The position numbers and the translations under genes were made by a program. Below are positions 6,075 through 63,657 of a DNA stretch of 64,000 bases, in pieces. Under the pieces are notes generated by a model. It did not search any database and had not been told where the DNA came from. It saw nothing but the letters and a program-made list of their open reading frames with translations. The stretch is from Cetorhinus maximus (lineage: Eukaryota): NCBI RefSeq assembly GCF_964194155.1, contig NC_135885.1, forward strand, positions 39,928,001-39,992,000, given 5' to 3'. Numbering within the stretch: the stretch's first letter is position 1; each line of letters begins with the position of its first letter.

Positions 6075-7130
6075 AGGGAATCCTGGTCAGGCAGCATCTG
6101 TGGGGAAAGCAACATAGTTAATGTTTCAGGCCAGTGACCTTTCAACCTTTCATCTGAACTGGAAGATGCTTCTGATGTGGAACAGGTTTTAAGCAGGCAC
6201 GGGGAAAGGGAGGAATAAACTAAGGGAGGGCAAGTGAGGGAGTGAAAAGAAGATGTGGTGAAATGAACAGCAGAACCATTACCAGCATCTGCTGTCCAAA
6301 CAAGTGGGTAAAGTGGTTACGATTTGAAATTGTTGAACTCAATATGTTCAATCCTGATGGTTGCCAAGTGCTTAATGGAAAAATTAGGTGCTGTTCCTTG
6401 AGTTTCCATTGAGCTTCATTGGAAAAATATAGGAGGACAGAGAGGTCAGTGTGGGAGCGAGGTGGAGAATTAAAGTGGCAAGCAACTGGTAACTCAGGGT
6501 TTGCAGACTGAATGGAGGTGTTTGGCAAAACGATCACCAAATCTGCATTTGGTCCCTCCATTGTAGAGGAGGCTGTATCGAGAGCAATGAATATGGTATG
6601 AAATTGAAAGACTCGCAAGTAAATTGAAGGAGTGTTTGGCTCCCTGAGCAGTGGGAAGGGAGGAGGTGAAAGGACAGATATTGCATCTGCTGCACTGTAT
6701 AGGAAGGGGGTGATGGTAGAGTGGACCAGGGTATCTCAGAGGGAATGGTCCTTTTAGAATCCTGAGAGAGGAGGAAAGGTGAAGATGTGTTTGATGGTAA
6801 CATCGCATTGGAGATAAGCGTGTTCTGTTGAATGTGAAGGCTGGTGGGATGGAAGGCGAGGACAACAGAAAGCACACTTTCTGTTCTGGGAGAGAGGGGA
6901 TGAGGGCAGAAGTGTGGAAAATGAGATGAATGTGTTTGATGGGTCTGTCAATGGTGGAGGGGAACCCTCAGTTAACGGAAAAAGAAGATGCATCAGAAGC
7001 ACTAATGTGGAAGGCTGCATCTTCAGGACAGATGCAATGAAGAATGGAGAAACTGGTAGATCTTATGGGAAGTGACGTGGGAGAAAGTGTAATCAAGATA
7101 GCTGTGGGAGTCGGTGAGTGTGTAGTAAAT
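6075..7130 (-). mobile_element. Older degenerate Penelope-like element (GIY-YIG region and 3' end with eroded HHR-like motif near 6115-6162)
   Basis: Minus ORFs contain CSRCNICPF, LYNGGTKCRFGDRFAKHL, LPVACHFN, KLKEQHLIF, homologous to ORF 44143..44850. Confidence 0.85.
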
Positions 7131-11082: not shown

Positions 11083-11524
11083 AAGAGAAATAAAAACAGA
11101 AAATGCTGGAAAAACTCAAGTCTGACATCATCTGTGGAGAGAGAAACAGAGTTAACATTTTGAGTCTATATGACTCTTCAGAGCTAAAAAGAAGTAGATG
11201 TGATGGAATTTATATTGTTTAAGGGGGGTGGAGCATGTAAAGCAGGATAGAAGGTTAGCAATAGGTGGGGGCTAAAGAGGGATTGACAAAGATGTCATGG
11301 ACACAAGACCAAGGGATTATTAATGGTTGTGGTGAAGACTAACGGTGCTGATAGTGAGTGGCTTAAAGGTAAGAAAGCAGCAAGGGCCAGCACTCTGTGA
11401 AAGAACAACATTGAACAAGTGAAAGATGATGGCCCTTTTGGGTGGGATGGAGGTTGGTTTTCTGTTTTTATTCCATTTTCTGTTTTTATTTTAGATCTCC
11501 AGAACAGTATTTTGCTTTTATCTT
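11083..11524 (-). mobile_element. Family-A Penelope 3' end insertion with an inverted tail piece, nested in CR1
   Basis: AGTAGATAA repeated at 11074-11082 and 11525-11533; minus-strand pLTR with eroded HHR at ~11148-11185; plus-strand tail piece 11460-11523. Confidence 0.75.
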
Positions 11525-13912: not shown

Positions 13913-13982
13913 ATCAGACCTGAGTTTTTCCAGCATTTTTGTTTTTGTTTCAGATTTCCAGCATCTGCAGTATTTTGCCTTT
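13913..13982 (+). repeat. Family-A Penelope tail-only insertion (70 bp)
   Basis: 'tcagacctgagtttttccagcatttttgtttttgtttcagatttccagcatctgcagtattttgccttt' flanked by imperfect repeats acctacatgcaat / accttacatgtaat. Confidence 0.7.
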
Positions 13983-14191
13983 ACCTTACATGTAATTTTC
14001 CCTTGTTGGATTTCAAATAATTCTAAGTTCCATTTATTGGCAATAACCTCTCCAGTTCCTTCTCGAAATCCATTTAGATTCCTTGTGCCAGTATATTCAC
14101 CGCCTCTTTAGATTAACCAGAACTTCTGCATGTCTTTCCTTTTTTTATGTAGTCATGCATTTAAAAATACAACTTTTTATTTGCCCTTCAG

Positions 14192-23825: not shown

Positions 23826-24330
23826 GAAGGTGGTGGATAGTGACATTGTCACTGGACTAGTATTCCAGAAAACCAGGGTAATGCTCTGGGGACCTGAGTT
23901 CAAATCTCACCGCGGTAGATGGTGAAATTTGAATTCAATAAAAAATCTAGAATTGAAAGTCTAATGATGACCATGAAACCATTGCCTAATGAAGAGTCAG
24001 ACGGACTTGAAACGTTAACTCTGGCTTCCTTTCCACAGATGCTGTCAGACCTGCTGAATTTTTCCAGCAATTTTTGTTTTTGTTTCAGATTTCCAACATC
24101 TGCAATATTTTGCTTTTATCTTTTATGAAACCATTGCCAATTGTTGTAAAAACCCATCTGGTTCGCTAATGTCCTTTAGGCTGCCATCCTTACCTGGTCT
24201 GGCCTATACATGACTCCAGACCCACAGTGATGTGGTTAACTCTTAAATGCCCTCTGAACAAGGGCAATTAGGAATGAGCAGTAAATGCTGGCCTAGCCAG
24301 TGATGCCCACATCCATGAACGAATAATAAA
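23826..24330 (+). mobile_element. tRNA-derived SINE with LINE-2nd family 3' tail, interrupted by a Penelope mini-insert
   Basis: A/B-box-like head (gagttcaaatc), body gtaaaaacccatctggttc..., tail gggcaattagg...aaatgctggcctagccagtgatgcccacatcc. Confidence 0.8.
23987..24124 (+). mobile_element. 138-bp family-A mini-element starting at the hammerhead core
   Basis: Perfect 14-bp TSD ATGAAACCATTGCC at 23973-23986 and 24125-24138; sequence matches 45231-45364. Confidence 0.9.
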
Positions 24331-35680: not shown

Positions 35681-35953
35681 AGAAACCAAGTAATGTCACC
35701 CCTGCCTACTTAAACTGCACAAAAAGCAATCCACCCCACTCATCAACAACATGAAAATATTGTTTCCATTTGTAATGCCTATTCAATGAGGTAAGAATTT
35801 GAGCACACATCCCACCCTGATTTCGGAACAGGTGCTTGTGTTTCACTCTTGGTCTCTTAAATAGTACTTCTAAACCAATTTGAATTTCATTTCTCCCCAT
35901 TTTCCTTGCTAAAGCCAGACTAACCAACTGTCCATATTACTGAAAAAAGAGAC

Positions 35954-35989
35954 ATGTCAAAGCTTTTCATCATGCACTCATCAGGACAT
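35954..35989 (-). ncRNA. Minimal type-I hammerhead ribozyme motif (family B), core intact
   Basis: Reverse complement ATGTC-CTGATGA-GT gcatg AT-GAAA-AGCT-TT-GACAT: stem I ATGTC/GACAT, CUGAUGA and GAAA cores, palindromic AAGCTT stem III. Confidence 0.7.
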
Positions 35990-36087
35990 TCGCAAGAATA
36001 CCAATATAGGGGGGGAAACAATCATTTATATTGTATACTTCACAAACAGTATAAATTGTTGTTTTCCCCTCATATTGGTGTTCTTTC

Positions 36088-36123
36088 GTGTCCTGATGAG
36101 TGCAAAACAAAAAGCTTCGACAT
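36088..36123 (+). ncRNA. Hammerhead motif (family B), GAAA mutated to AAAA
   Basis: GTGTC-CTGATGA-GT gcaaa AC-AAAA-AGCT-TC-GACAT. Confidence 0.6.
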
Positions 36124-36958
36124 GTCTCTTTCTTCGGCAATACTCATGTTCTGTACTACCGGACGATTATCTGTCCCTAGATCATTGCCAAGTGCGTTTC
36201 CAAAATATAACCTCTGATTCTAAAACCTCCTTATTCTTCAAAAATGAATATCTGTCTCTGATTCTCTTTCAAGCACCTCATCTTCTTCCAAACCTCTCAC
36301 CTTTCCTTTAGAATCCCCATTCTCTATCATACCATCCATAGTACCCTCTCTCTTTTCCACCCTCAAAGTCCACTTACGCACTGAGTGATGTCTCATTGTC
36401 AGTTATTTCAATCTCCATCTCAACTTGTCTTCCCCTGATTTCTCTTCCCTCCTGAATTTCTTAAACCTCTCCCTCTGTTAAGCTCCCCTACCATTTCCAC
36501 AGCCTCTCCTTCGACCTTATCATCTCCTGTGGCCTCTCTAAATCAATGATCTTGATCACAGATGAGGACCTTTCCAATCGCATCCTTAACGGCCTTACCA
36601 CCCACATCTTAGCTACTTCAACCCCATTTCTTTCTGCACCCACCTTGAAATAACTCTCCAACCACCCCACCCACCTTCACCTCGTGCTCCCCAGAGGATG
36701 GCATCGGAGGCCAGGGGTGTGTGTGTTGGAGGTCAAAACTGATGGCCCTCACCTCGTCTTCCCGGTAGTTAATTGGAAATTTATTTTAGCTCATATAGGA
36801 TTAGATGTCAGGAAAGCAATCTGAAACACAGGCAGTAGAATGAGGTTGAGAGAGGTGGTGGTGAAGTAGAGATGGGTATCATCAGAATATATGTGGAACC
36901 TGGTGTCTTCGGATTATATCTATGGAACACTAATGTAGCATAATGCGTTAATAGAACA

Positions 36959-41290: not shown

Positions 41291-43330
41291 AAGATGCATT
41301 GTGTCTGCCAACATCATTCGGAGCAGTGTTGTGTGACAGAAAACAGTGGCTGACCATGGGACCAAGGTTTTCCAATGATGCACTGGAGGTCTTGGTGGAG
41401 GAGGTGGGAAAGAGGGAGAGATGTCCCCTACATGGGGTATTGGGTGGAGGGCAGTAGACCCTCCAGACACACAAAGAGAAGGCAGTGGGAGCAGATAGCT
41501 GTGGAGGTAAATGCCACAAATTTAAAACCTGGATACAGTGCCTCAAGATGTTCAGTGACATCATACAAATGGGCAAGGTCAGTGAATGCATCTTTAAATG
41601 CCATATCCCTATAACTGCATCACTAGCCTCAGCCACGGACCAATTTACTATTCAGCTACAAACAAACAATCTCTTACAATTAGGACCCATACCTAACATT
41701 ATATGCTTCACCTCACCCTCAGGAGAGGCGGGTGGAGATGGTGCCAAACACTGGGGCCTGGGGGCTGGATGGGGGTAGGCCCGGGAGCTGGGTTGGGGCA
41801 GTGGTGGGGCCTGGGCTTGGTGTTGCAAATGGAGTTTCTTGTCATCCAGGCCTGAGCAGCCAGAGCTTCAGACCTGAAAGAGCAGCTTTAAAACTATTGG
41901 AACCGTCAGCCTGACAGTTCCAATTTTTTTTAGCTGATTTTTCAGGTCAGTATCATTCAGTTACTGCGCTGCTGCCTCTGACCTTCAGGCAGCTTTGTGA
42001 TTCCAATTTTTTTTTAAAAGCCTGCCAGAAAACCATGGAGCTGCCCAAAGGTCAGCAGCAGTTCCTATTTGCAGCTACTGTCATGAGAGTGCTCGCAGCT
42101 GAATATTTGCTTGAAAAATGGTAAGTCAAATGCCTGAAATCATTTTAGAGCCAATTGGATTCTGGGGCGGTGGGGTGGTGGGGAGTGGGGAGATCGGGAG
42201 GTGGGGAGATGGGGGGTGGAGTGTTGAGGGGCAGGGCTGGTGGGAAGGTGGGGGGGTGGTGAGTGGGGATGGTGGGGTAAGGGGGTTGTAGGGGTCACTT
42301 TTAAGGCTTAGTGCCACAAAATTAAATACTGTACATGTCTCAAAATTCCCTTCTGAATTTAATCTAGTATATAAATAGCAGTCTAAATTTTCATTATACT
42401 CTAAAGCAGACACAATTTTGATGAAATGCTGTGTTGATGCATCAGAGGTTTGGGAATTTTAGGCCTCATCAAAATAAATATAAGAAACTAAAAACTGGGA
42501 GTGATGCAAAACTCACTATCGTCCATGTTATTATTCTTGTAAAATCTGGGGATGGAATCCCTACTTGTCACTAAGATATTGCTTAAAGAAAGATTTTAAA
42601 AATCTCTACTCCATCCTATGTTCACCCCAGGTAGGCTGTAAATTCAGTGTACAACAATTCGTATGACAGCTTCTGGTGAAGGGGAAGCAATCTAGTTTTT
42701 GAGTTAAGGCCGTACTGGGTTTTTGTACCATGCATCATTCTTCTCTGAAAAATTTAGATCAACAATTCAACCCACATTTTTCCTGAGTTGCTGGGAGATG
42801 TCTGATTGACAAATCCTGGGGATAGTGTCATTAGTGTAAAAGAGGCAAGTGAAATTTATGGTATATTGTGGGTTGGTGCCAGAGAAGTCAGAATGATAAG
42901 GTTGTATTAGCTACAGAGTTGAATTGTTTGTAAATGTAGTGATTTCTTTGTAGCCACTTTCCTGATGTCAGTTATGTGATTAATCAGCTCTTGATTAATC
43001 ATCCTTAGAGAATCAGCATTGGGCCTCCAATTTCACCATTGTCACTCTGCCTACTGCATGCAGATGTAATGAAAAAATGACAAAACCTACATTAATGCAG
43101 CACCTTTCACAATGTCCCAAATTGCTTTACAGCCAGTTCAATACTTCTGAAGTGTAGTCACTGGTATAATGTAGGCAATGTTGTCAAATGGTGGAGCAGG
43201 CTCAAGGGGCTGAATGGCCTACTCCTGCTCCTAATATGAATGTTTCAACCTGATAGTCTCCTAGCCTTGGACGGCCCGCTTCTACCTCCTACACAAACTA
43301 CACAAACAGGACTGTCCCAGCAGACCGATT

Positions 43331-44850
43331 GTGTCAGCCTGTTCCTGCCCCACGGAACTCATTTCTTGCTATCTTGACTCCATTCTCTCTCCCCTTGTCC
43401 AGTCCCTTCCCAGCTCCATCCGTGATTCCTCTGACACACTACATCATATCAACAATTTTCAGTTCCCTGGCCCCAACCGCCTCCTCTTCACCATGGACGT
43501 CCAATCCCTCTACACCTCCATCCCCCACCGGGATGGTCTGAGGGCCCTTAGCATCTTCCTTGAACAGAGGCCTGAACAATCCCCAACCACCACTACTCTC
43601 CTCCATCTGGCTGAACTTGTTCTCACACTGAACAATTTCTCCTTTAACTCCTCTCACTTCCTCCAAATAAAAGGTGTGGCTATGGATACCCGCATGGGCC
43701 CCAGCTATGCCTGTCTCTTTATGGGATATGTGGAACATTCCTTGTTCCAGTCCTACTCCGGCCCCCTCCCACAACTCTTTCTCCGGTACATCGATGACTA
43801 CTTTGGTGCTGCTTCATGCTCTCGTCTGGACCTGGAAAAATTTATTAATTTTGCTTCCAATCTCCACCCCTCCATCATTTTCACATGGTCCATCTCTGAC
43901 ACTTACCTTTCCTTCCTTGACCTCTCTGTCTCAATTTCTGGTGATAGACTGCCCACCAGTATCCATTACAAGCCTACCGACTCCCACAGCTACCTCGACT
44001 ACAGCTCCTCACACCCCACTTCCTGTAAGGACTCCATCCCATTCTCTCAGTTCCTTCGCCTCCGTCGCATCTGTTCTGATGATGCCACTTTCAAAAACAG
44101 TTCCTCTGACATGTCTTCCTTAACAGAGGTTTTCCACCCACGGTGGTTGACAGGGCCCTCAACCGTGTCCGGCCCATCTCCCGCGCATCCGCCCTCACGC
44201 CTTCTCCTCCCTCCCAGAAACATGATAGGGTCCCCCTTGTCCTCACTTATCACCCCACCAGCCTCCGCATTCAAAGGTTCATCCTCCGCCATTTCCGCCA
44301 ACTCCAGCATGATGCCACCACCAAACACATCTTCCCTTCACCCCCCCTGGAGACATTCCGCAGGGATCATTCCCTCCGGGACACCCTGGTCCCCTCCTCC
44401 ATCACCCCCTACACCTCAACCCCCTCCAACAGCACCTTCCCATGCAACCGCAGAAGGTGCAACACCTGCCCCTTTACTTCCCCTCTCCTCACCGTCCAAG
44501 GGCCCAAACACTCCTTTCAAGTGAAGCAGCATTTCACTTGCATTTCCCTCAGTTTAGACTACTGCATTCGTTGCTCCCAATGCGGTTTCCTCTACATTGG
44601 AGAGACCAAACGCAGACTGGGTGACCACTTTGCAGAACACCTTCGGTCTGTCCGCAAGCATTACCCAGACCTCCCTGTCGCTTGCCATTTCAACACTCCA
44701 CCCTGCTCTCATGCCCACATGTCCGTCCTTGGCCTGCTGCATTGTTCCAGTGAAGCTCAACGCAAACTGGAGGAACAGCACCTCATCTTCCGACTAGGTA
44801 CTTTACAGCCTTCCGGACTGAATATTGAGTTCAACAATTTTAGATCATGA
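43331..44850 (+). pseudogene. PLE RT-GIY-YIG ORF with one frameshift near 44120
   Basis: ORFs 43331.. and 44143..44850 join if ~7 nt, present in the copy at 1-757, are restored. Confidence 0.85.
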
Positions 44851-45226
44851 ACTCTCTCCTCCATCCCCACCCCCTTTCCGATCCCCCCCTTTTTTTTCCA
44901 ATAATTTATATAGATTTTTCTTTTCCCACCTATTTCCCACCTATTTTTAAATGTATTTCCATCCATTGTTTTATCTCTACCTTTTAGACTATTTCGATTC
45001 CTTCACCCCACCCCACCCCCACTGGGGCTATCTGTACCTTGCTTGTCCTGCTTTCTACCCTTAATTAGCACATTCCTTAGATAATATCACCACCTTCAAC
45101 ACCTCTTTGTCCTTTTGTCTATGACATCTTTTGGCTATCTCCACCTATCACTGGCCCTCTATCCAGCTCTACTTGTCCCACCCCCCTTCAACCAGCTTAT
45201 ATTTCACCTCTCTTCTATTTTTACTT

Positions 45227-45265
45227 AGTTCTGTTGAAGAGTCATACGGACTCGAAATGTTAACT
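45227..45265 (+). ncRNA. Hammerhead-like motif (family A) in the PLE 3' pLTR, variant core CTGTTGA
   Basis: AGTT-CTGTTGA-A-GAGTC atacg GACTC-GAAA-TG-TT-AACT. Confidence 0.65.
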
Positions 45266-46589
45266 GCGTTCCTCTCCGCAGATGCTGCCAGACCTGCTGA
45301 GTTTTTCCAGGTATTTTTATTTTTGTTTTGGATTTCCAGCATCCGCAGTTTTTTGCTTTTATCTTATGTGTGTTTCTATGTTCGTATGTCATTCTGGATG
45401 GATGAGATGAGCTGGGTTAGATGGTCTTTGTCATCCATAATTATCTTGCGAATAGAGAGTGGAATCATGGCTAGAGTTCTGTTTATTTTGTTGCTAATGG
45501 AAGTTTACTGTGACCAGGCTTTGTGGGGTGAAATTGCCAGGACAGCAGTGCCTAATGGGCTTATAGTGAATCAGTAACCTGTTTTACACTCCACGTGATT
45601 CTCAAGAGTCTTTTCCATTTGTTTCAATCTTGTCCATTTGTCTACTTATCTAATATCCCATTCTATCTTGGTGCTTTTATGAGTTTTTTGAGGTATTTAA
45701 ATATTGTGATAAAGTTTTATTGCATGGTAGATATTGAAAATATCTTATAGTGAGAAGCAGCAATCAGCAGTCTTCAGACCTGCTGATCAAGAAATCACAG
45801 ATACAATTGGGAACCATTCAGTCTTTGTCCTCAAGCCTCTTAAAAATTGTGTTACACAGAAATATCTGAGGGCTCCAATGTTTCTCACTGACAGTGAAGA
45901 CCTATGCTGTTCAATCATTCCATTTTGTTGCTCAGGAGTTATTTGATCTTTCTATCCTGTGAGATTACTGATAAAATAGAATCCAATTATACCCCTTGTG
46001 TGAAATAATTATATTGAATTATATCATGCGCCCAAGCAGGAGAAAGTCTTCTACTTTTTCTACAGAATGGAAAAGCTCTTGTGCAGTTTATCTGGGTTGC
46101 AAGTATTGAATCTTTCCTCCAGATATGAATTTACTATCATTATGTCCATATGGTGCAATGTGCAGAATATGTTAATGAGGGCTGAGGCAGTCACCCAAAC
46201 CATTGTTATCGTCTACACAATGTTATAAGTAACTAATGGGATATCTTCCTGTCAAATTAACAATATTGCACGATGCTGTTAAAGTAAAATTTGTACTCTC
46301 TGGTTTGTTTAATAGTTGCACTGGGATCACCTATAAGGCATACACAAACTAACACTGCATTATATCGTTGCTGTTCTTAATATTAATGACCCATGCTGCT
46401 TATATACCAAGATGACATTTGTAATCAGGTGCCAACAATGGGCATTATCATTTCACTAGGACCGTGCTGTGATTGGTGAATTGATTGGGGAATCTTGAGG
46501 AGGAAGGTTAAAGTTGTTGGCGGTGGGGGGCACAGAATAAGGGGTCCAGAAATAAGACAAGCACCAGGGCCTATGATTTCTGTACCTGG

Positions 46590-49523: not shown

Positions 49524-49677
49524 ACAAAGTTGATGTTTCGAGTCCTCATGACCCTTCAAGATGATTCGAAACGTCAACTTTGTTCTTCTCCGCTGATGCT
49601 GCCAGACCTGCTGAGTTTTTCCAGGTAATTTTGTTTTTGTTTTGGATTTCCAGCATCTGCAGTTTTTTGTTTTTATT
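49524..49677 (+). mobile_element. 154-bp family-A mini-element with a 5' inverted hammerhead fragment
   Basis: Perfect 14-bp TSD ATTGATGTTGAGGT at 49510-49523 and 49678-49691. Confidence 0.9.
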
Positions 49678-56100: not shown

Positions 56101-56214
56101 AAAACTCTGTTCTGATGAAAGGTCACAACCTCGACACATTAACTCTGTTTCTCTCTTCACAGACGCTGCCTGACCTGCTGAGTATTCCTGGCATTTTCTG
56201 TTTTAATTTCCCAG
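56101..56214 (+). repeat. Older family-A-like mini-element with degenerate hammerhead
   Basis: gttCTGATGAaaggtcacaacctcGACAcattaac followed by the PLE tail. Confidence 0.65.
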
Positions 56215-57285: not shown

Positions 57286-57299
57286 TAGCCAGTAGAGGA

Positions 57300-57960
57300 T
57301 ATGGGTGTTGGAGGGGAGAGGAGATGGGTGCCGGAGGGGAAAAGAGACAGGGTTGCTGGTGGGGAGAGGAGACAAGGTGCTGGTGGGGAGAGGAGATCGG
57401 GGTGCTGGTGGGGAGAGGAGATCGGGGTGCTGGTGGGGAGAGGAGACAAGGTGCTGGTGGGGAGAGGAGATCGGGGTGCTGGTGGGGAGAGGAGACAAGG
57501 TGCTGGTGGGGAGAGGAGACAGGGGTACAGGAAAAGAGAGGAGACAGGGGTGCAGAGGGGAGAGTAGACAGGGGTGCGGGAGGGGAGAGGAGACAGTGGC
57601 GTGGGAGGGGAGAGGAGAGGAGATAGGGGTACAGGAGGGGAGAGGAGATGGGGTGCAGAGGGGAGAGAAGACAGGGATGCTTGGGTGAGAGGAGACAGGG
57701 GGGCGGGAGGGGAGAGGAGACAGGGGTGCAGGTGGGGCGAAGAGACAGGGGTGCAGGAGGGGAGAGGAGAGGAGATAGGAGTGCAAAGGGGAGAGGAGAC
57801 AGGGGTGCATGAGGGGAGAGGAGACGGGGTGTGGGAGGGGAGTGGAGCTGGTAGTGCTGGGGAGAGGAGACAGGAGTGCTGGGGGATGTGGAGCCAAGTG
57901 TGCAAGTGGGAGAGGATCTGGGGGTGCAGGGGTCTGGAGACAGGATTTCAGATGGGAAGA
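57300..57960 (+). repeat. G/A-rich minisatellite, 21-25 bp unit (GGTGCTGGTGGGGAGAGGAGA(CAA/TCGG))
   Basis: Direct inspection; generates the spurious repetitive ORFs in the track. Confidence 0.95.
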
Positions 57961-61990: not shown

Positions 61991-62748
61991 TACTGAAGCT
62001 TCAGTTGAAGTATAAATGCAGGCAAAAAGAAACATAGTTATAATCCAAATGTCAATCTGTCATTTCACAATTATAAAATACCGAGTGTGTCTACCTATAA
62101 ACACGGGCTCCATGTAACTAAAATACAAAACTCCTACTGACATTCTGGGTTGTTTAATTCTTGTATTTTTCAAAATATATCAAATTGCTGTTTATTTTGT
62201 GTTTCAGGTTTTACTGGAAGCCATTAGATGTGATATTAGAATGTGACTAGGATAGGAATTCTGAGAATGCAGAAATTTTGACTGGGTCACATTCCATAGT
62301 GAAACTTGGATTGTAGTTTGATTTATTCCTATATAGCTACAAAATTAAAACAATGGTTAAAGTGATAATTAAAGGCACAATTCCACCCCATTTCATCTAG
62401 TTTCCACATCTCCATTCATAGTGATATATCTGTGAATCTTGCCCTATTCATGTTTTCATCTGAAATTAAACATAGATAATGAGCAATTCATTAGATAATG
62501 AAAGCATAGGGTTTTTATCAATTATTACATAGCTTCTTTCACTGGTACATGTCCCAAAGCAAAGGTTTACAATCAGTGCCAGCTCGCTATGCCATTGTGA
62601 AGGGATCTTATTATGAAAGCTAGGGGGTGTCGTTGAAGTTCCATTTATGACAGAAAAAAAATGAGAATGTTCAATTTTCTTTGAAATTAGACCTGCAAAT
62701 GCGATTTCATTTTCAGAAATTGTGCGATTCAAAGCTACACATTCCACA

Positions 62749-62981
62749 TAAAAGCAAAATACTGCGGATGCTGGAAATCTGAAACAAAAACAAAAACTGC
62801 TGGAAAAACTCAGCAGGTCTGACAGCATCTGTGGAGAGGAAGACAGAGTTAACGTTTCGAGTCCGTATGGCTCTTCTTCAGAGCTCAGATGAAGAGTCAT
62901 ACGGACTCGAAACGTTAACTCTGTCTCCCTCTCCACAGATGCTGTCAGACCTGCTGAGTTTTTCCAGCAGTTTTTGTTTTT
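62749..62981. mobile_element. Family-A fold-back mini-element (99-bp arms, no spacer) with a hammerhead motif on each strand
   Basis: TSD GCTACACATTC(C/T)ACA at 62734-62748 and 62982-62996; arms 62785-62883 and 62884-62982 centred on GAGCTC. Confidence 0.92.
62846..62886 (-). ncRNA. Minimal type-I hammerhead motif (family A), core intact
   Basis: Reverse complement GAGCT-CTGAAGA-A-GAGCC atacg GACTC-GAAA-CG-TT-AACTC; palindromic AACGTT stem III. Confidence 0.7.
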
Positions 62982-63434
62982 GCTACACATTCTACAGTTT
63001 TGTTAGCATTATGTGAATTATGTAGAAAAATCATCATTCTTTAATTTCTCATTAGAAGAGCAATTTTACCCCAACCCACTCACAAAGGTATGTTGTTTTA
63101 ATTCTATTTTTGATACAGCTATGATTTAGCCTCCAATGTGCCCAATGAAATTAAATGTTTACGCTGCTAATTGCCTCTCCTATGGGTGACAGGCATGTGT
63201 GGCGATTGCTGGAAAAAAAATCTTAATTTTGCTTTTAGTGTAAAAGTGCTGCAGAGCACAGCAATGCTTTTTTAGAGTTCACAATGAACCAATTCATTTA
63301 GTTTCAGTTCATTTCAGCTGCTATCATCCATTTCTTTTATACTACCATTGGAGTTCACTGTTATACCTGAACACAGTGACTTTCAATCCAGAACAAGGTA
63401 CCGATCAAAATCAGAATTTCTGTACACATTTTAA

Positions 63435-63657
63435 TATCGCCGAGAAAGGAGACATGTTACTGAAGCTACTCATCTTGCACTGATCAGGGCAAACACAAGA
63501 ATGCCAAATTTCAAACAATCAACGATTTGTACGACAGGAGAGCACCTCTTTTCTCCTGTGGTAGAAGTTGTTGGTATTCTTGCGAGTGTCCTGATGAGTA
63601 CAAGTCAAAAAGCTTAAACGTGTCTCTTTTCTCAGCAATACGCAAGTCCTGTACCAC
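63435..63657. mobile_element. Second family-B fold-back mini-element (older)
   Basis: Plus arm GTGTC-CTGATGA-GTacaagtc-AAAA-AGCT-T at 63586-63615; inverted arm ~63435-63540. Confidence 0.75.

Follow-up and report, generated by a model that had tools for sequence, protein, structure and literature searches.

The stretch of Cetorhinus maximus DNA considered here (contig NC_135885.1, positions 39,928,001 to 39,992,000; 64,000 nucleotides, hereafter 'the window') harbors at positions 62749-62981 a palindromic insertion of 233 nt with a hammerhead ribozyme motif on each strand, and raises the question of whether such a structure travels as a non-coding element in its own right, as a sequence-only reading of the locus had suggested, or is built at its site of insertion by the machinery of a larger retroelement. 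The insertion is an inverted repeat without a spacer, as that reading described, and its center lies between positions 62883 and 62884, in a self-complementary, zero-loop AGCT (62882-62885) that is shared by both arms and that, by its central position and by the analysis of junctions, represents a 4-nt microhomology at the fold point. When positions are counted along the sense strand of each arm from the A of this AGCT (position 0), self-comparison and arm alignment place a minus-strand arm of 137 nt from 0 to +136 (62885-62749) and a plus-strand arm of 100 nt from 0 to +99 (62882-62981). The description of two 99-bp arms thus holds for the paired portion, in which 99 positions pair outward from the center with four mismatches (at +5, +8, +15 and +45), but not for the arms as such, which are unequal: the left arm carries a further 36-37 nt (62749-62785) that have no partner on the right. 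This one-sided 37-nt 'tail' forms the 3' end of the long arm, ends at a point common to the 40 top arm matches, and resembles the 30-40-nt tail described for Penelope-like elements (PLEs; PMC8557442, PMC11167929).

The palindrome is bounded by a 15-bp TSD with one mismatch (GCTACACATTCCACA at 62734-62748 and GCTACACATTCTACA at 62982-62996), and represents a single insertion event, as the sequence-only reading had concluded. Its folding energy is -176.8 kcal/mol (z = -27, with none of 200 shuffled sequences folding as well), and transcription through the locus would yield an RNA hairpin of about 99 bp, close to the double-stranded RNA of some 100 bp that had been anticipated. As judged by sequence comparison, both arms are copies of the tip of the pseudo-LTR (pLTR) of an autonomous Penelope-like retroelement, arranged head-to-head, with the tail present in the long arm and absent from the short one. 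The inserted palindrome is likely to be dead, and the locus itself is a real insertion of an ordinary kind.

The surroundings of the insertion offered little evidence of a host gene: 84 selected frames between 49943 and 63762 (83 of 155 listed frames, together with one short frame) gave no Pfam match other than RT. A short frame at 62151-62246 (plus strand) follows a splice-acceptor-like site, ends in LLEAIRCDIRM and a stop codon 500 nt upstream of the insertion, and could on sequence grounds be a last exon; it had neither a Pfam match nor coverage by assembled contigs. The same contigs did not cover the unique flanks of the palindrome, a result that says nothing about expression. Elsewhere in the window, self-comparison revealed a G-rich tandem repeat with a period of about 72 nt (57294-57957).

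The hammerhead layout was found on both strands, as reported: a minus-strand motif at 62847-62885 (helix I AGCU/AACU, core CTGAAGA, GAAA, CGTT and the palindromic ACGU) and a plus-strand motif at 62882-62920 with the mutated core CAGATGA and the same GAAA and CGTT elements. Both motifs were matched by hand to the published description of minimal hammerheads (PMC4209133), with which the proposed identity as minimal type-I ribozymes of a Penelope pLTR agrees, and the fold point does fall within the 5' strand of helix I. The minus copy has an intact core, as stated, but is not intact as a motif: besides its CUGAAGA core it has 4 of 5 pairs in stem II, where C and A are mismatched (C.A), 3 of 4 pairs in helix I and a U at the cleavage position, and the plus copy, with all 5 stem II pairs and 3 of 4 helix I pairs, has the altered core CAGAUGA, such that neither is intact. 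An Rfam scan of the palindrome returned no hammerhead, only matches to miRNA hairpins below gathering scores that are due to the palindrome itself, and single arms folded freely yielded neither a hammerhead fold nor a better energy than shuffles, as is expected for a minimal motif. Nor would the presence of the motif on both strands supply a working ribozyme dimer, since a transcript of the palindrome contains a single ribozyme together with the complement of it; imposing the ribozyme fold on that transcript costs 50.7 (plus) or 52.2 (minus) kcal/mol.

The motifs share with the minimal hammerheads of metazoan pLTRs a short helix I, an unpaired base before stem II, a palindromic 15.2-16.2 segment and the lack of stem III (PMC4209133), and differ from them in that the two motifs of the palindrome have four helix I bases in common and are both damaged; in Schistosoma, motif pairs on opposite strands have likewise been noted, 100-700 bp apart (PMC4209133). 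Among copies centered on AGCT, 9 of 50 arms have an intact hammerhead. The core of the youngest subfamily reads CUGCUGA or CUGCCGA (A6 to C; loci L166-L185) and that of a sister subfamily CUGUUGA (A6 to U; for example at 45216-45361 of the window), so that the most active lineages carry non-canonical hammerhead cores.

The postulated Penelope origin of the arms was confirmed by a one-arm search of the 4-Gb genome, from which the 40 top copies were taken: most of the best 30 loci run on past position 0, and single-arm matches continue into an element that encodes RT and GIY-YIG domains. A protein search for this parent produced 50,603 candidates, of which 139 were scored, many of them with an open frame of 924 amino acids. 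That frame matches RVT_1 (E = 8e-7) and GIY-YIG (E = 4.5e-4), both slightly below the Pfam curated cut-offs, and contains the motifs DKG and YIDD, a CX4CX2C linker (CPRRRCNTC) between RT and endonuclease (EN), and a CxxC within the GIY-YIG domain. A CX2-5CxxC linker at this place defines the Neptune and Nematis groups (PMC8557442), and by that definition, applied to the predicted protein, the parent is a PLE of Neptune/Nematis type. It has the further hallmarks of an EN+ PLE, namely a single ORF with RT and, at its C-terminus, GIY-YIG, and pLTRs that derive from tandem or partial tandem arrangement, and the insertion in the window has those of an EN+ PLE insertion unit, namely an inverted 5'-truncated copy, the 37-nt one-sided tail and the 15-bp TSD. 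In one tandem array (locus L167), intact 924-aa ORFs recur with a period of 3292 nt and a pLTR of about 500 nt, which ends with the hammerhead and tail directly before the start of the next ORF. Intact 924-aa copies belonging to a very young subfamily are numerous in the genome, and the window itself contains, by similarity, a 5'-truncated and frameshifted copy of a sister subfamily (43243-45361, plus strand) with RT, zinc-finger linker, GIY-YIG and a full pLTR with hammerhead and tail, which over 2148 nt shows 87.8% identity to a young natural copy. Two larger arrangements were also observed: a 6.7-kb near-perfect palindrome (L166:1547-8259) with two full 924-aa ORFs, no difference over 3280 nt and a joint inside the hammerhead, and a locus (L167/L168) with two tandem ORFs and an inverted full copy.

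Copies of the arm are abundant. Around 83 positions picked regardless of content, 63 arm matches were found in 821,700 bases (77 per Mb), which extrapolates to hundreds of thousands of arms in the genome. A genome search for the exact two-arm junction pattern identified at least 595 short palindromes, and the proposed count of copies with the same fold point yielded an exact AGCT center in 93 forward and 92 reverse matches; reverse-read control patterns gave no match. Seven further pieces of the pLTR family lie within the window (6085-6127, 11087-11194, 11474-11520, 13914-13983, 23991-24118, 49524-49675 and 56130-56210), among which are run-on copies, solo stubs bounded by TSDs and one small fold-back. 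The same design, with an inverted pair, a one-sided extension and a CTGATGA core, is shown by a second repeat family that is unrelated to the first; it occurs at 35935-36175 and 63566-63657 and accounts for 9 matches in 4 of the 83 random loci (L255, L193, L217 and L195).

Whether these palindromes descend from a palindromic master can be read from their junctions and from the relation of their arms. In the first 50 palindromes picked by pattern, 24 junctions show microhomology, 23 have gained 1-10 bases, which in many cases repeat arm sequence, and three are blunt, and an identical junction string occurs in at most three; 47 of the 50 pair one tailed with one tail-less arm, and 38 have a TSD of 11-17 bp (mode 14), as compared with 3 of 50 when flanks are swapped. 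Two kinds of arm end are also evident from arm 3' ends, which cluster near +100 and +135. Within a larger set of 77 (27 picked by similarity, 50 by pattern), copies fall into several subfamilies and the two arms of each copy agree: they are discordant at subfamily-diagnostic columns in 2 of 70, 5 of 67 and 5 of 61 cases, where independence would give 34, 43 and 32. No column among 93 separates tailed from tail-less arms in these 77 palindromes after correction (lowest p = 0.027), and in exact-AGCT copies the lowest of 15 values (p = 0.009, at a CpG site) is likewise not significant after correction. The 25 exact-AGCT copies analyzed, of about 100, comprise at least four haplotypes that are concordant within copies, which implies that an identical fold point arose repeatedly. 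The partner arm is the single closest arm in just 4 of 68 cases, which is what one would expect if the copies are old and belong to a small number of large subfamilies. The fixed junction and side-specific variants of a SINE- or MITE-like clonal master are thus lacking, as are the head-to-tail tandem units, each with an intact ribozyme, of a retrozyme, the present units being head-to-head and two only. The insertion was likely built de novo at its site in one event, as opposed to moving as a unit of its own.

Coding insertions display the same design over much greater lengths. Of 19 elements chosen because their ORFs are long, 15 consist of two head-to-head arms, and in nearly all of these one arm ends at the tail and the other about 40-55 nt earlier; the tailed arm is longer in six, the tail-less arm in seven, and two pairs are near equal. 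The stretch of overlap between the two arms measures 342-3280 nt and contains 0-15 differences, in long insertions (to 3.3 kb), and alleles private to a locus are common to both arms in 12 of the 15. This near-identity, to which gene conversion could have added, indicates together with the private alleles that a single source supplied both arms and that they are copies of one and the same stretch, and the fact that either may be longer indicates that neither is regularly the template of the other. In two three-arm inserts (L261:3806-4152 and L103:4894-5240) some 15 nt from the opposite flank are present on the additional arm, which suggests DNA-templated synthesis during joining.

The 5' boundary of the arms is equally informative. 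The fold points are not scattered at random along the pLTR, which was one part of the outcome that the sequence-only reading had named as refuting its proposal, and recur at hammerhead helix I. In a sample of 101 untargeted arms of at least 85% identity (from which edge matches and two duplicate calls were dropped, and 24 more diverged arms left out), the 5' ends of short arms are distributed between +70 and 0, where they meet a wall: 30 of the 59 arms that reach +4 end between -6 and +4, only one of the 29 survivors ends in -7 to -30, and the hazard falls from 0.046 to 0.001 per nt beyond (Fisher p = 4e-7), with 20 untargeted arms running for 300 nt or more. Genome-wide 7-mer counts gave 18,713 arms that reach +1, of which 14,544 (77.7%) keep a downstream control 7-mer, and 10,488 (53-56%) that keep a TATA-like 7-mer at -33; if both 7-mers decay equally, about 28-31% of arms stop between +1 and the TATA-like 7-mer, and the sample gives 14 of 42. 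No peak of 5' ends marks the ribozyme cleavage site (2 of the 101 untargeted arms end at +33 to +37), which fits the use of uncleaved RNA as template in vitro (PMC11167929).

Arms mostly start at 0 or +1, and at junctions with inserts an extra G precedes 9 of the 16 that start at +1 (p = 0.019, in a small sample) and none of the 21 that start at +2 to +7; an untemplated G has been taken as a copy of the cap for L1 and SVA (PMC4859970). Run-on copies have a TATA-like stretch near -30 and, in 31 of 32, a pyrimidine tract with YAG at -1 to +1, directly 5' of the core. Sequence context and end positions together make it likely that the AG at helix I is the RNA start of the Penelope element, about 30 nt 3' of its TATA-like box, although the pyrimidine tract and YAG fit a 3' splice site equally well, exon ends could also supply the extra G, and short-arm ends are spread from 0 to +70 and are not confined to 0. 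For D. virilis, an internal promoter that lacks a TATA box (PMC2377424) and an intron whose end lies at helix I (PMC4209133) have been described.

These observations can be joined in a double-priming model, which we consider probable as a whole, whereby the palindrome would arise de novo from the RNA leader of a Penelope element. The element RNA would start at the AG that immediately precedes the hammerhead core, so that hammerhead and tail form its 5' leader, with the hammerhead carried as uncleaved cargo. At the locus, the GIY-YIG domain would nick the two strands of the target with an offset of about 14 nt, and the 3'-OH at each nick would serve as primer for RT at an internal site of the RNA, in one case the tail end (+136) and in the other a point 37 nt further in (about +99); cutting and extension of two strands, and two internal RT starts, have been shown in vitro for a PLE of the Poseidon clade (PMC11167929). 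When the pLTR copy in the leader serves for both primings, each cDNA would run off the RNA 5' end after 100-137 nt, the two 3' ends would be joined by microhomology (here AGCT), and repair would leave a palindrome flanked by a TSD; if priming took place in the 3' pLTR, the same shape with kilobase arms would result. The zero-loop center excludes a hairpin primer within one strand, and the AGCT ends would anneal between two cDNAs. Against the model, a short partner in head-to-head orientation is present for only 36 of 72 short arms, and some tail-less arms end well before +99.

The original proposal of a separate non-coding palindromic RNA element with a fixed fold point, mobilized as a unit by the PLE protein, draws on the hundreds of short palindromes, about 100 with the exact center and with independent TSDs, and on a length that is constant in 27 distinct top matches (themselves selected by similarity). 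It is set against variable junctions, concordance by subfamily within copies, the lack of side-specific variants, coding copies that show the same design and, if the TATA-like box is the promoter, a unit that has no internal promoter; it is largely refuted at the level of the family, and as an account of this insertion we regard it as highly improbable. Another possibility retains the de novo double insertion, with the wall reinterpreted as a 3' splice site at which either spliced templates have a very short first exon or the splice junction stalls RT. The pyrimidine tract and YAG, the mapped intron end in D. virilis, and the fact that exons ending in AG, GG or TG would mimic starts at 0 and +1 all speak in its favor. 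Yet no constant upstream exon is found at junctions, where inserts are variable, 1-10 nt long and often arm copies, solo stubs carry differing extras of 5-15 nt before the TSD, and no canonical donor was seen by eye in the upstream pLTR; we consider this version unlikely. Assembled contigs of four runs (guessed to be RNA, or DNA), which cannot show starts, contained no splice joint into the AG.

A more general challenge to double priming comes from fold-back or self-priming, published as a hypothesis for the PLEs of Adineta (PMC3846280), in which only one cDNA is made and its 3' end (or an antisense template) serves to copy itself after folding back at a local palindrome. The near-identical arms with their private alleles, the microhomology at 24 of 50 junctions, and the short flank copy in three-arm inserts (L261), which shows DNA-templated synthesis at some junctions, could all be accommodated in this way. 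But either arm may be longer by kilobases, zero-loop centers and blunt joins are ill-suited to a hairpin primer, and the fixed tail-less end fits the second RT start observed in vitro (PMC11167929), so that self-priming appears quite unlikely and double priming remains the preferred account.

The inverted-plus-tail architecture is already published. The Adineta element Pen2a_Av (PMC3846280; see also PMC8557442) likewise has head-to-head arms, a tail at one end, a TSD and a junction with palindrome or microhomology, with an inverted pLTR that is 37 bp shorter and TATA and Inr-like motifs in the pLTR; in the Cetorhinus palindromes the arms are by comparison reduced to 100-137 nt, and thousands of copies make the 5' boundary measurable. 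PAc, the Poseidon element of Anolis carolinensis (PMC11167929), similarly cuts and extends two strands, has two RT starts that bound the tail, and uses an uncleaved template, but belongs to a different clade, and the ORF of the Cetorhinus element starts after the tail and not at stem II; the main text of that study does not explain inverted pairs or the 5' wall. Non-LTR retrozymes (bioRxiv 10.64898/2026.07.22.740005) are also non-coding, hammerhead-bearing and pLTR-derived, but consist of head-to-tail tandems with intact ribozymes. The present palindrome, being head-to-head, cannot yield a tandem dimer. In L1 twin priming, the pair of cDNAs is copied from different portions of a single RNA. 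In the Cetorhinus insertions, by contrast, both copy the same stretch, over up to 3280 nt, and two RNAs from one source, or two passes, are therefore needed; as in L1, both target nicks would prime cDNA, and small indels occur at the inversion joint (cited in PMC4859970). In the literature searched (outside subscription papers, repeat databases such as Repbase/Dfam, and supplements), nothing relevant to twin priming, head-to-head double priming or shark palindromic PLEs was found beyond PMC11167929, and neither a 5' wall nor double priming of the same RNA stretch was described.

The present analysis adds a genome-wide measure of how large the wall is and a comparison between paired long arms. 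The family is useful as mechanistic evidence: the origin of the tandem and inverted structures of PLEs is called undefined in PMC8557442 and is left open in PMC11167929, and the double-priming model predicts an RNA start at 0 or +1, two priming sites 37 nt apart and a stagger of 14 nt. The stubs may, with perhaps even chances, be a genome-wide fossil record of the Penelope cycle, in which a dimeric RT-endonuclease would prime both strands on two copies of the source RNA, the pile-up at helix I would mark the capped start, and the ribozyme would persist as an uncleaved 5' leader. If true, that interpretation would argue against the self-priming and antisense-template hypothesis, and would account for the inverted-plus-tail architecture that all EN+ PLEs have.
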